Assembly (NCBI GenBank): GCA_965223415.1
Contig: OZ245002.1
Coordinates: 2,112,001 to 2,176,000 of the forward strand
Direction: 5' to 3'
Origin: Myxococcota bacterium
Lineage (GTDB): Bacteria > Myxococcota_A > UBA9160 > UBA6930
Length of the DNA: 64,000 nucleotides
The notes beneath the pieces were generated by a model, which saw only the letters and a list, made by a program, of their open reading frames with translations, was not told where the DNA came from and ran no database searches. The translations under genes were made by a program, and so were the position numbers. Each line of letters starts with the position of its first letter. Position 1 is the first letter of the stretch. Shown here piece after piece: positions 5,158 through 41,282 of this stretch.

Positions 5158-6588
5158 ATGAACGGACACTGGGAAGAAAGGGACCGGCCCGTCGCGGGTG
5201 CCGCACTGCGCACGGTCCTCATCGTGGACGAGGATGCGGCAGCGCGTCGCGCCCTGGCCCGCGCCCTGAAACGCCTCGACGTCCGGCCGATCGAGGCCGA
5301 CGACGTGCCGGAGGCGATGGCGGCGCTCCAACGGGAGCGCGTCGAAGGGGTCATCGCGGAGGAGCGGCTGCCCTCGGGATGCGGCGTCGACCTGCTGGTC
5401 GCGGTGCGCGAGAGCTGGCCCCACGTCCGCCGCGTGCTCCTCGCCGGCGCGGGCGATCCGCGGACGGCCCAGCTGGCCATCAACCGGGCCGGCGTCTCCT
5501 ACCTCCTCTCGAAGCCCTGGGAGGGGGAGGCCCTCGAAGAGATCGCCGCCCGGCTTCCCGAGCCGCCGGAAGCGCGGCCCGCGAGTCGGCCCGCGCTGGG
5601 GGCCGCGACACCTCGTCACCGCTTCCCCGGCATCGTCGGCGAGTCGCCGGCCATGCGCGAGCTCCTCGAGCTGGTCTGGAAGGTGGCGGAGACCGACAGC
5701 ACGGCGCTGATCACCGGTGAGACCGGCACCGGCAAGGAGCTGATCGGGCGGGCGATCCACGAGGCGAGCCGCCGCAGCGAGAGGGTCTTCTCCGCGGTGA
5801 ACTCGGCGGCCTTCCCCGAGACCCTTCTCGAGAGCGAGCTCTTCGGCCACCGCCGGGGCGCGTTCACCGGCGCCTCCAACAACAGCAAGGGCCTGTTCGA
5901 GCACGCGGACAAGGGGACGGTCTTCCTGGACGAGGTGGCGGAGATGCCGCTCTCGATGCAGGCGAAGCTGCTGCGCTTCCTGCAGACCGGTGAGATCCGA
6001 CCGGTCGGCGGCGAGGTGACGCGCTACGTCGACGTGCGCCTCGTCACCGCCACCAACAAGGACCTCGAGATGGAGGTGGCCGAGGGCCGCTTCCGCGAGG
6101 ATCTCTACTACCGCCTCGCCGTGATTCCCGTGCACGTGCCGCCGCTGCGCGATCGGATCGAGGACATCCCTCTTCTGGCGCGCCACTTCCTGGACCGCAT
6201 GGCCCAGAAGACCCATCACCCGATCGGGGAGATCGACCCGGCGGCGATGGACCGGCTGGCGTCCTACCGCTGGCCGGGCAACGTGCGGGAGCTCGAAAAC
6301 GTGATCGAGCGGGCGGTCGCCCTGTGCCGCAGCGACCGCATCGGCGTCGACGACCTTCCGCTGCACGTGCAGGAGCCCAAGCGCGCGACGCCAGAGACGG
6401 GCATCCAGAGCCTGCCCGGCGTGGAGCGCCGGCACATCCTCGAGACCCTCGACAAGGTGGGATGGAATCGGAAGCGCGCCGCGGCGCTGCTGCAGATCTC
6501 CACCACCACCCTGTGGCGGCGACTCAAGGAGTTCGGAATCGAAGGCGACCCCCGCACCCGCGGTGGCCGCGTGCACCTGAACGGCTGA
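5158..6588 (+). CDS. Sigma54-dependent activator (atypical REC-AAA+-HTH), FleQ/FlrA-like candidate master regulator
   Basis: GETGTGKE, ESELFGH..GAFTGA, FLDEV, RFREDLYYRL, WPGNVREL, Fis HTH; alternative start 5140. Confidence 0.9.
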   Translation: MNGHWEERDRPVAGAALRTVLIVDEDAAARRALARALKRLDVRPIEADDVPEAMAALQRERVEGVIAEERLPSGCGVDLLVAVRESWPHVRRVLLAGAGDPRTAQLAINRAGVSYLLSKPWEGEALEEIAARLPEPPEARPASRPALGAATPRHRFPGIVGESPAMRELLELVWKVAETDSTALITGETGTGKELIGRAIHEASRRSERVFSAVNSAAFPETLLESELFGHRRGAFTGASNNSKGLFEHADKGTVFLDEVAEMPLSMQAKLLRFLQTGEIRPVGGEVTRYVDVRLVTATNKDLEMEVAEGRFREDLYYRLAVIPVHVPPLRDRIEDIPLLARHFLDRMAQKTHHPIGEIDPAAMDRLASYRWPGNVRELENVIERAVALCRSDRIGVDDLPLHVQEPKRATPETGIQSLPGVERRHILETLDKVGWNRKRAAALLQISTTTLWRRLKEFGIEGDPRTRGGRVHLNG

Positions 6589-6607
6589 CGAGGGCCAAGG
6601 AGAGCTC

Positions 6608-7117
6608 ATGGCGGACGAGGAAGCCGAAGAGACCACCGAAGAGGGCGGCGACGAGAAGGGCGGCAAGCCCTGGATGCTCATCATCCTGGCGGCGCTGGTG
6701 GCCCTGGGCCTCGGGGCAGGCGGCACCTTCTTCCTGCTGGGGGGGAAGGAGGAGCCCGTGGCGGCCGAGGCCGGCGAGGCGGACGCGGAGCCCGTCGAGC
6801 CGGACACCGAGTTCCAGGAGCGCGTCTTCTCCCTCGACCCCTTCGTCGTGAACGTCACCGGTGAGGGCTACCCGCGCTACCTGAAGATGCAGGTCGCCTT
6901 CGAGATGAACACGGCCGAGGGCCGCATCGAGATCGAGAGCCGGGTCGCCCAGGTGCGGGACACGACGATCCTGCTGCTCTCGAGCAAGCGCCTCTCGGAC
7001 ATCAGCGATTTCGAGGGGAAGGCGCTCCTCAAGGATGACCTGCGAGACCGGGTGAACTCGCTCCTCAAGGCCGGCCGGGTCGAGAGCGTCCTCTTCACCG
7101 AGTTCGTGGTGCAGTAG
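6608..7117 (+). CDS. fliL: Flagellar basal body-associated protein FliL
   Basis: N-terminal TM, LDPFVVN, RYLK, VLFTEFVVQ. Confidence 0.93.
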   Translation: MADEEAEETTEEGGDEKGGKPWMLIILAALVALGLGAGGTFFLLGGKEEPVAAEAGEADAEPVEPDTEFQERVFSLDPFVVNVTGEGYPRYLKMQVAFEMNTAEGRIEIESRVAQVRDTTILLLSSKRLSDISDFEGKALLKDDLRDRVNSLLKAGRVESVLFTEFVVQ

Positions 7118-7120
7118 ACG

Positions 7121-39401: not shown

Positions 39402-39454
39402 CGACCACCCGCGACGCGGAGCCGACACCGTGACCGCCACCCGCGACGCGGAGC
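39383..39454 (+). repeat. 32-bp tandem duplication across a stop/start junction
   Basis: CGCGGAGCCGACACCGTGACGACCACCCGCGA / CGCGGAGCCGACACCGTGACCGCCACCCGCGA / CGCGGAGC. Confidence 0.9.
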
Positions 39455-39993
39455 TCGCCTCGGCTCTCCTCGACCTGCGCGCTCCCTTGTCGCGCATCGA
39501 GCTGGCGGCGAGTCGGCTCGACCGCGAGGAGCGGACGCCCCGCACGGGCGAGCTCGCGCGAACGATTCGCGAGGCCGTGGCGGCCGCCGATCACAAGCTC
39601 GAGCTGGCGTTGCGGGTGCTGGCGCCGCCCGCAGCGGAGCCGGCCCTTCCCGCGGCAGGTGTGCTGGAGGAGCTCGCCCTGCGGCTGCGTCCCGTGCTGG
39701 CGGCGCGTGGTCTCGAGCTGCGGGTCCACGGCGAGCCTTCGCCGGCCCTCGATCCCGCCGTGCTCCGTCGCGCCGCCATCGCCCTGGCCGGCACCGCGGC
39801 GGAGCTGGCGGAGGCGGGGCCGGTCGAGCTCCGTCTCGTGTCGGGGGAGGGGCGCTGGGGAGTCGAGGCGTGCTGGAGCGCCGCCGCCGGCGAAGGCGCC
39901 GCACTGCGCCGCCTCCGACCGCTGGCCCTCCTATGCGGCGGGGAAGCCTGTCACACGGACCGGGGCGCCGTCTTCTGGATGTCGACTTCGTGA
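39430..39993 (+). CDS. Degenerate histidine-kinase-like protein (no phospho-His)
   Basis: ALLDLRAPLSRIELAA resembles HisKA H-box HDLR.PL..I with His replaced by Leu; eroded ATPase domain. Confidence 0.6.
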   Translation: MTATRDAELASALLDLRAPLSRIELAASRLDREERTPRTGELARTIREAVAAADHKLELALRVLAPPAAEPALPAAGVLEELALRLRPVLAARGLELRVHGEPSPALDPAVLRRAAIALAGTAAELAEAGPVELRLVSGEGRWGVEACWSAAAGEGAALRRLRPLALLCGGEACHTDRGAVFWMSTS

Positions 39994-41282
39994 GGGTGCT
40001 GGCGCGCCTCCGGGACGCCGGCCTGCGCCGGGACGTCCTCGCCATCGCCCGCGCCGCCGGCTACGCGGCCGAAGAGGGCGCGAGCGATGCGGCGATGCTC
40101 GCCAGGGTGGAGCGGGGCGGCGTCGACGCCTCCCTGGTCGAGGTGAGCCGGCACGCCGACCTGCACCTGATCGAGGAGCTGCGCCGCCTCGCGCCGGACG
40201 TCGGCGTCGTCGCCGTGGGCGGACGGCCCGGCGTGGACCTGGTGGTCGACGCGTTTCGGGTCGGTGCCTCCGACTTCCTGCGCATGCCCTTCGACGTCTC
40301 TTCCCTGGAGCGGGCGCTGGCCCAGGTGCTGCGGCGGGAAGGCGCCGGGCCACGGGAGAGCGCCTTCCTCACCGAGGACGCGACCACCCGGGGCCTGCTC
40401 GACCAGCTGCGAAGGGTGGCGGCCAGCGAGGCGACGGTTCGTCTGGTCGGCGAGTCCGGCACCGGCAAGGACCTGCTGGCCCGCTGGCTCCACGAAACGA
40501 GCTCGCGTCGTCACGGGCCCTTCGTGGTGGTGAGCTGCGCAGGGCTCGCGCCGAGCCTCGCCGAGAGCGAGCTTTTCGGTCACGTTCGCGGCGCCTTCTC
40601 CGGCGCGGTGGAAGCGCACCCCGGGCAGCTCGCCACCGCCGACGGCGGAACGCTGGTGCTCGACGAGATTGCCGACCTCCGCCTGGAGCTCCAGCCGAAG
40701 CTCCTGCGCGCGCTCCAGGAGCGCGAGGTGATTCCTCTCGGCGGGCGGACGCCCCGGCCCCTCGACATCCGCGTCGTGGTCACCACCCAGCGGGACCTGG
40801 GGCAGGAGGTCGCCGCCGGTCGCTTCCGGGCCGATCTCTACTACCGGCTCGACGTCGTCACCCTGCGCATTCCGCCCCTGCGCGAGCGGCCCTCGGACGT
40901 TCCCCTGCTGGCGCGCGCGTTCCTCGACCGCTTCGCCGCCGCCTCGGGCAGCGAGCCGGCGCGTCTGGACGACGAGGTCATCGCGGCGCTCGCGTCCCGC
41001 CCGTTCCGGGGCAACGTGCGCGAGCTGGAGAACCTGATGCGGCGCGCGGCACTCCTCTTTCCGGGGCGTTCCATCGACCCGGCCCGGCTGTTCACCCCGA
41101 GCGCGAGGTCCGGGGGAGGGATGACGCCGGGTCTGCGCTCGCTGAACCTCCGCGAGCTGGAGCGCGCCGCCGTGATCCGCTCCCTCGAGATGACAGGCGG
41201 CAACCGCACCCTCGCCTCGCGCGCCCTGGGCATCAGCGTGCGCACCCTGCGCAACAAGATCCGGCAATACGAGCTAGCCTGA
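39990..41282 (+). CDS. Sigma54-dependent activator (degenerate REC-AAA+-HTH), FleR/FlrC-like position
   Basis: GESGTGKD, ESELFGH..GAFSGA, LDEI, RFRADLYYRL, GNVRELEN, GGNRT..LGISVRTLRNK. Confidence 0.9.
   Translation: MRVLARLRDAGLRRDVLAIARAAGYAAEEGASDAAMLARVERGGVDASLVEVSRHADLHLIEELRRLAPDVGVVAVGGRPGVDLVVDAFRVGASDFLRMPFDVSSLERALAQVLRREGAGPRESAFLTEDATTRGLLDQLRRVAASEATVRLVGESGTGKDLLARWLHETSSRRHGPFVVVSCAGLAPSLAESELFGHVRGAFSGAVEAHPGQLATADGGTLVLDEIADLRLELQPKLLRALQEREVIPLGGRTPRPLDIRVVVTTQRDLGQEVAAGRFRADLYYRLDVVTLRIPPLRERPSDVPLLARAFLDRFAAASGSEPARLDDEVIAALASRPFRGNVRELENLMRRAALLFPGRSIDPARLFTPSARSGGGMTPGLRSLNLRELERAAVIRSLEMTGGNRTLASRALGISVRTLRNKIRQYELA

Follow-up and report, generated by a model that had tools for sequence, protein, structure and literature searches.

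FleS/FleR and FlrB/FlrC are two-component flagellar pairs. Caulobacter FlbD, by contrast, is active without phosphorylation and regulated by its bound partner FliX, serving as both activator and repressor (PMC3096577), while DVU1063 of Desulfovibrio vulgaris has an atypical receiver, binds GGCAxxxxTGCC and regulates the flagellar operon DVU0316-0310 (PMC3333781, PMC4641369). Here we analyse a 64,000-nucleotide stretch (the window; C1:2112001-2176000) of a Myxococcota genome (G000; contig OZ245002.1), which comprises 5.83 Mb in a single contig of about 70% G+C and has one large flagellar gene cluster within the window. Its nearest named FlgC matches come mostly from metagenome bins assigned to Myxococcota or Deltaproteobacteria. 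Four proteins of this cluster derive from two-component systems and are named here A1, R, K and A2:

5158..6588, + strand: A1, a sigma-54 activator (receiver, AAA+ and helix-turn-helix domains) with intact GAFTGA, carrying E68 and A96; likely a chimera
31352..32392, + strand: R, a CheC/CheX-like N-terminal domain fused to a pseudo-CheY receiver (Ala277-Trp278)
39430..39993, + strand: K, a sensorless histidine-kinase core (dimerization and histidine phosphotransfer domain, DHp, plus a degenerate catalytic and ATP-binding domain, CA) without the His, the N box and the G2 box
39990..41282, + strand: A2, an FlbD/DVU1063-type sigma-54 activator with a pseudo-receiver (E51), a GAFSGA loop and intact Walker A and B motifs

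We judge it probable that flagellar expression in this bacterium depends on two non-phosphorylated sigma-54 activators, with A1 acting as the ATPase engine and A2 gated by bound K. The initial annotation had proposed that all four proteins lack their phosphoacceptor, and our alignments bear this out, the motifs lying where it had placed them and the substitutions falling at canonical positions. E68 of A1 faces the Asp of NtrC-family receivers, and Ala96 additionally stands in place of Thr; A2 has E51 at the Asp position, no beta-1 acidic residue, and Met99 in place of Lys; Leu14 of K aligns with the His of a true kinase in the same alignment (L120, LAHELRNPL); and VIVAWQL of R (Ala277) aligns with AWN of the CheY chain 3h1f in PDB. 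None of the window A1, A2 and R has the canonical set of a phosphorylated receiver (beta-3 Asp, acidic pair, Thr/Ser and Lys). The clustering of dead receivers is real, since all three in the window lack the Asp as against just 5 of the 71 others in the genome (Fisher p 0.0009, post hoc). The four losses came by separate routes, and the all-dead state is the end point, in this genome, of several independent losses. The lineage has thus probably shed phosphorylation piece by piece, to completion in this genome, instead of carrying a single ancient all-dead network.

Orthologs were compared within the order of the window genome, where fliF is present in 58 of 193 genomes (our own counted), using the flgB region of 45 distinct loci (three further loci were duplicates or belonged to a different cluster) and of 20 loci outside the order. 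Counts leave out duplicate loci, L029 (frameshifted A2), the loci without both TPR and A2 (L008, L027, L028, L045), the A1 rows L061-L063 and L065-L068 (replaced or non-syntenic) and the partial K rows L028 and L045. Ratios of nonsynonymous to synonymous substitution rates (dN/dS) come from a simple counting method with dS near 1, and the main comparisons, cited in this order below, are with the two closest relatives, G004 and G005.

K is a stand-alone cytoplasmic core of 187 residues. From gene position we infer descent from a FleS/FlrB-type kinase: as in FleS/FleR and FlrB/FlrC, a kinase gene, an activator gene and flgB adjoin directly, although K has no sensor, His or ATP boxes. The His is missing from all 42 syntenic orthologs. 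A profile search of 1.84 billion representatives yielded 114 proteins at E 1e-30. Of the 150 best homologs (173-267 aa), 144 cover the His position and one of these has the His; GxGLG occurs in none of the 150, a DxGxG string occurs in 16 at an unplaced position, and neither N-box column has a conserved Asn. The helix that follows the lost His, in contrast to these active-site residues, has ten positions conserved at 84-99% among the database homologs. The fold is predicted with a local confidence score (pLDDT) of 91 and a DHp-CA layout, and all the top Foldseek matches listed are kinase cores (TM 0.43-0.69), so that of the features of an active HisKA kinase K has the DHp and CA fold and lacks the H-box His and the ATP boxes. 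DivL and RetS, both among these matches, are histidine pseudokinases that use the kinase fold for partner binding; K differs from them in being so small, free-standing and sensorless. Its dN/dS is 0.15 and 0.19 (0.12 and 0.10 for the DHp domain alone), comparable to FliF. The gene order pilZ-TPR-K-A2-flgB is kept in every sufficiently long locus of the order, and GTGA overlaps link the operon genes in the window. On this sequence evidence K is an old, family-wide pseudokinase under purifying selection. No K ortholog was found in the five genomes of the sister order (best K profile score 50 bits).

These values speak to the possibility of simple decay, in which unused two-component parts drift after loss of their kinase. 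Our data already contradict this explanation where K, A2 and R are concerned: in the two closest comparisons, K and the receivers of A2 (0.08 and 0.13) and R (0.14 and 0.08) have dN/dS like those of structural flagellar genes, K is kept across the order with its near-invariant helix, and reading frames, overlaps and promoters are intact. It fits the A1 receiver in part. This is the least constrained part of that protein, with its highest dN/dS (0.24 and 0.32, against 0.07 and 0.06 for the A1 ATPase domain), and of the 12 relatives sharing the fused form of A1 described below, three still have a canonical receiver, while the others have each decayed differently, on long branches; the pattern points to a partial relaxation of constraint. 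As an account of the system as a whole, decay is very unlikely, and the earlier expectation of selection on the altered proteins holds for K, the A2 receiver and R, with the partly relaxed A1 receiver as the exception.

What K may have been kept for is suggested by complex prediction. A K dimer with the A2 receiver scored 0.63, against 0.00 for the best control, on a test in which 116 of 157 solved complexes reach the mark, as do 2 of 215 mismatched pairs; the runs share at least 65% of contacts, the partner pLDDT is at least 80, and the predicted A2 contacts map to K residues 14-29, on the conserved helix. K is therefore predicted to dock on the A2 receiver, and has likely been retained as a docking partner. 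A2 resembles FlbD in being a flagellar sigma-54 activator with a divergent receiver and a similar palindrome. The partners differ, in that no kinase activity has been demonstrated for FliX, nor is it described as kinase-derived, whereas K is a dead histidine-kinase core and a predicted partner; moreover, a second activator, A1, is present here and the A2 ATPase is often lost. DVU1063 is a deltaproteobacterial FlbD homolog, and the palindrome found here resembles the DVU1063/FlbD motifs (PMC3333781), although the spacer is 4 there and 5 here and DVU1063 is not known to have a pseudokinase partner. That FlbD and DVU1063 are, by these accounts, also phosphorylation-independent overturns the earlier statement that FleQ/FlrA alone has this property. 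In the open-access literature we found neither a flagellar pseudokinase-activator pair nor any flagellar regulation of this clade.

The residue four positions after the His is a phosphatase determinant in histidine kinases, and in 104 of 144 K homologs it is Thr, Asn or Ser. K might accordingly be viewed as a phosphatase-only remnant, BumS-like, that strips A2 of phosphate acquired from acetyl-phosphate or cross-talk, with the Asp-to-Glu change fixed later in this genus and K reduced to a vestige or a mere binder. The A2 orthologs with Asp (31/40) and Lys (30/40) agree with this view, as does the BumSR precedent (PMC12469816). We nevertheless consider it improbable: in the window, where His+4 of K is Ala and A2 bears Glu, both proteins are still under purifying selection, the A2 receivers, including the 31 that bear Asp, lack the acidic pair and have a shortened loop after the Asp, and the ATP-binding boxes of K are gone.

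A2 itself has FlbD (NF050807) as its best NCBIfam match, at 335 bits and under the cut-off of 750. Its receiver is 84% identical to that of G004, exceeding the AAA+ domain (79%). Four of the 40 orthologs in the order have Glu at the Asp position, as do all four read in the sister order, where the loci run TPR-A2-flgB and neither K nor A1 was found. The GAFTGA-type loop that contacts sigma-54 is lost in 31 of 40 orthologs, and the Walker B DE is visible in only 8, while the DNA-binding helix-turn-helix is almost invariant despite the loss of the ATPase and an FlbD-type site is likewise retained. Loop loss needs five changes on the FlgB-FlgC-FliF tree, at least three of them forced by well-supported branches. 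The window A2, with GAFSGA and intact Walker motifs, stands apart from these loop-less orthologs; GAFSGA also occurs in DVU2827. Since flgB keeps its sigma-54 site in 43 of 44 loci and 28 of the 31 genomes with a loop-less A2 have an A1 match, another activator likely supplies the engine. VpsR, TyrR and NtrX are atypical activators in which GAFTGA and Walker B were lost (PMC6158489); those work with sigma-70, whereas here the flgB sigma-54 promoter persists where the A2 ATPase is dead. FleQ/FleT and HrpR/HrpS are co-dependent activators and likewise place two activators at one promoter class (PMC9542535), although those pairs have no N-terminal regulatory domains. A further reading, possible but doubtful, is that of a split activator, in which A1 would be the engine and A2 a DNA-targeting or anti-activator subunit with a dispensable ATPase, gated by the pseudokinase and the c-di-GMP (cyclic di-GMP) PilZ protein, with a FliA-type sigma on the master operon and sigma-54 on flagellin without FlgM.

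A1 has all the marks of a sigma-54 activator (Walker A and B, GAFTGA and helix-turn-helix), and its ATPase motifs are retained in every aligned ortholog. The Asp is present in 33 of 42 orthologs and the receiver is fully canonical in 28, including the two closest (78% identity); E68 and A96 are private to the window genome among the fused relatives. Upstream of A1, 20 loci hold an intact kinase (5), a His-less one without an ATPase domain (7), a receiver remnant (2) or nothing (6). The intact kinase of G027 has the Pfam architecture REC-GAF-PAS-HisKA-HATPase. In a quick tree of 120 columns, the A1 receiver of the window and its 12 relatives groups with the receivers of these upstream kinases and away from activator receivers (SH-aLRT 95; 13 + 10 rows on one side of the branch; 39% identity), while the body of A1 is orthologous. 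On the marker tree, the eleven fused-form genomes represented all belong to a single clade of 12 rows (SH-aLRT 100). The fusion is likely to be most simply explained, judging from this tree, as one deletion that removed the kinase core together with the activator's own receiver. No match to A1 at E 1e-95 was found in the five sister-order genomes, nor does A1 stand beside fliL in any of them.

GHK4 is a hybrid kinase with an N-terminal receiver and is paired with FgrM. FgrM is the master flagellar sigma-54 activator of Geobacter (PMC8844916). GHK4 resembles the G027 kinase in its N-terminal receiver; in the window, in contrast, the kinase core is gone and the receiver is fused to A1. Asp to Glu was a modest phosphomimic in BumR (PMC12469816), so the window A1 is plausibly on by default. 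Two further arrangements were seen among the compared loci. Seven of the 20 loci (L206, L208-L210, L216-L218) carry the REC-GAF-HisKA remnant upstream of A1, an independent second pseudokinase in the cluster, and Acidobacteria loci have intact activator-kinase-activator-flgB layouts.

The operon of K and A2 and its neighbourhood include further regulatory genes:

15585..16439, + strand: HDOD protein 1, directly after flhG
33207..34304, + strand: diguanylate cyclase with intact GGDEF; adjoins pilZ in 9/40 loci
35733..36575, - strand: HDOD protein 2, divergent from pilZ; same position in three same-genus loci
36778..37317, + strand: PilZ protein with invariant RxxxR and SxxG
37314..39401, + strand: TPR-like protein with a signal-peptide-like N-terminus, judged by eye

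The motifs of a c-di-GMP-binding PilZ domain are RxxxR and D/NxSxxG. RxxxR and SxxG are present in 40 of 40 loci, and the D/N position is mostly Val (Asp in 3/40). This putative c-di-GMP-binding protein is the sole order-wide link to c-di-GMP. The TPR protein looks secreted and is thus unlikely to touch A2 directly.

The initial annotation had gone further and proposed that the whole hierarchy had been switched together, with c-di-GMP or protein contact taking the place of phosphorylation. In its favour, the three window receivers and the kinase are all dead, pilZ is co-transcribed with K and A2 and its motifs are invariant, and in 15 of 20 loci the second kinase, which precedes A1, has lost its His, is truncated or is missing. 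The substitutions, though expected to be conserved, are family-wide for K and R only, A1 and A2 orthologs mostly keeping their Asp, and a lineage-wide dead design is not supported, given the 28 of 42 canonical A1 orthologs, the two closest among them, and the intact upstream kinase in 5 of 20 loci; the losses also differ in age. The proposed c-di-GMP input may hold for the PilZ protein at the head of the K/A2 operon and finds little support in GGDEF, which adjoins pilZ in so few loci. We do not accept the HDOD genes as evidence for it, HDOD protein 2 being genus-limited, and HDOD proteins are not known to have a c-di-GMP function. The remark that no che gene lies in the window is literally true but misleading, as three chemotaxis clusters, with 8 CheW matches and 6 MCP (methyl-accepting chemotaxis protein) matches genome-wide, lie elsewhere in the genome. 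Rewiring as one unit is, in our estimation, improbable.

Promoter and enhancer motifs provide a further view of the hierarchy:

5105..5131, + strand: sigma-28 (FliA/WhiG)-like promoter match that opens the A1-fliL-fliM operon
16914..16928, + strand: perfect sigma-54 promoter match, upstream of flgF
28109..28123, + strand: perfect sigma-54 promoter match, upstream of flagellin fliC; kept in 12/12 relatives
36736..36750, + strand: perfect sigma-54 promoter match, upstream of pilZ-TPR-K-A2; kept in 25/40 relatives
41633..41645, + strand: candidate A2 site, an FlbD/DVU1063-like palindrome that departs from the relaxed consensus at one position, with the flgB promoter 106 nt further on
41662..41667, + strand: TGAAAC motif; candidate A1 site
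41739..41753, + strand: perfect sigma-54 promoter match, upstream of flgB; kept in 43/44 relatives

The palindrome GGCA-N5-TGCC is exact in 21 of 84 sigma-54 promoter regions (shuffle mean 0.5), mostly 85-140 nt before the promoters, and is found with at most one mismatch in five of five sister-order loci. Of the 84 regions, 43 contain YGAAAC (shuffle mean 6.3), as does one of five in the sister order; within the genome this motif accompanies four of four flagellar sigma-54 sites as against 4 of 36 others. Outside the window, at G000:C1:1132696 on the - strand, an unannotated gene follows a perfect sigma-54 site that has TGAAACGCG on its upstream side; going by this motif, the gene is a possible remote member of an A1 regulon.

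The match at 5105..5131 follows the sigma-28 consensus. In 13 of 22 relatives a site of this kind is found no more than 450 nt downstream of motB (motB control 0/22; shuffle mean 0.3). The sole FliA/WhiG over the cut-off is encoded at G000:C1:4603455-4604492, 2.4 Mb from the flagellar cluster, where fliA adjoins a sigma-54 activator gene and has a relaxed sigma-54 match upstream. No FlgM passed the cut-off in the genome (best E 0.07), a family short enough for a miss to be possible. Because a sigma-28-like site heads the A1 operon, fliC has a sigma-54 site and no FlgM passes the cut-off, the usual pattern of sigma-28/FlgM late-gene control is missing and the motifs suggest an inverted hierarchy.

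R points to the step beyond gene expression. The Asp is present in only 1 of its 34 orthologs and Trp occupies the next position in 30; CheY chains are the top PDB matches of the receiver. A long N-terminal domain, found in 15 of 34 orthologs, aligns with CheC/CheX-like proteins, a call made by eye together with a weak CheX match (E 0.21); no Pfam family passed the cut-off for this domain in any of seven orthologs, and a blast search of its own genome returned only itself. E-x-x-N is the phosphatase motif of CheC/CheX. The window R has EVMK in its place, and EVMN occurs in 3 of 15 full-length orthologs. Among the receivers of the genome, the canonical CheY of chemotaxis cluster 3 is the closest to that of R. 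The motor protein of the cluster is also relevant:

7121..8032, + strand: FliM, with the N-terminal peptide LSREELAALL

This peptide is of the type that docks phosphorylated CheY. With the cluster 3 CheY canonical and the FliM peptide kept, motor steering likely still operates through CheA-CheY phosphorylation. R is likely an adaptor or competitor at the chemotaxis-motor step, the weakest part of our model.

In the model that we favour, A1 would supply the ATPase engine for the flagellar sigma-54 promoters, A2 would be controlled by the dead kinase K, bound to it directly as a stoichiometric partner in the manner of FliX, and the co-transcribed PilZ protein could feed c-di-GMP into the K-A2 module. 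A deletion would have cost A1 its kinase and joined the receiver of that kinase to the activator; A1 would be on by default, with Glu as a partial phosphomimic, and controlled at transcription from the sigma-28-like promoter. R would act as a non-phosphorylated CheC-CheY adaptor, chemotactic motor control remaining a normal CheA-CheY phosphorelay encoded elsewhere in the genome. Several observations weigh against this model. Against a third relative, G001, the dN/dS of K is much higher (0.54), and that of these domains in general is 0.24-0.73. The docking result may reflect mere likeness, because textbook kinase-receiver complexes are already solved. A pure loss of phosphorylation leaves the Asp and Lys retained by most A2 orthologs unexplained, and the Glu-type A2 of the sister order, found without K in all four cases read, implies that A2 can in places do without K. 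No kinase adjoins the two closest A1 orthologs although both are canonical, so another kinase may serve them, and the placement of the A1 receiver rests on the quick tree. Finally, the exact FlbD-type palindrome is absent from the window, where relaxed matches occur at flgB and flgF only.

We regard the system as real, under selection and in part undescribed, and as a variant of the flagellar activators already known to be controlled by a partner; new are the A1 fusion, the repeated loss of the A2 ATPase, the two candidate enhancer motifs and the sigma-28-like site heading the A1 operon. It defines a minimal bacterial pseudokinase family, comprising at least 150 clusters at 50% identity, for which a specific partner is predicted, and a graded series within one order, from an intact kinase-activator pair to a His-less kinase to a deleted kinase with a fused receiver. 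Were A2 and A1 a split activator, the order would offer a natural series of two-component systems becoming binding switches. Since the proteins are small, soluble and expressible, the role of kinase and receiver after the loss of phosphate is directly testable. The model is a first one of flagellar regulation for flagellated uncultured Myxococcota, a subject on which our literature searches returned nothing specific.

Public contigs agree with the window. All four runs, one of them a second sample, cover the A1 stretch with zero substitutions, the single difference being a low-depth 1-base insertion downstream, and three of four span the K/A2 stretch with zero differences; the matching contigs may be the assembly's own source data. 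They also confirm that about 32 bp are tandemly duplicated where the TPR gene ends (window 39390-39453), which yields an 11-codon mini-ORF (open reading frame) that preserves the GTGA overlaps from TPR to K. We reject sequencing error as the origin of E68 or of this duplication, the contigs being in agreement with the window.

Between R and pilZ (window 33207-36575) lie the GGDEF gene, a pyridine-nucleotide oxidoreductase (transhydrogenase-like) and the gene for HDOD protein 2, the latter two forming a pair seen in three same-genus loci only. An inserted small ORF of about 112 codons (window 41290-41629), which presumably resembles YjbR/MmcQ proteins, separates A2 from the flgB promoter. The flgB-adjacent activator apparently lacks a receiver in other classes of the phylum (L156, L157, L160-L162). 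The stretches 184-2710 and 26761-27885 of the window hold sugar-modification and methyltransferase-like genes at the edge of the cluster, which likely serve to glycosylate flagellin, and a GNAT gene that diverges from fliC and that many relatives share. fliO and fliP are apparently fused in a single reading frame (window 8384-9427).

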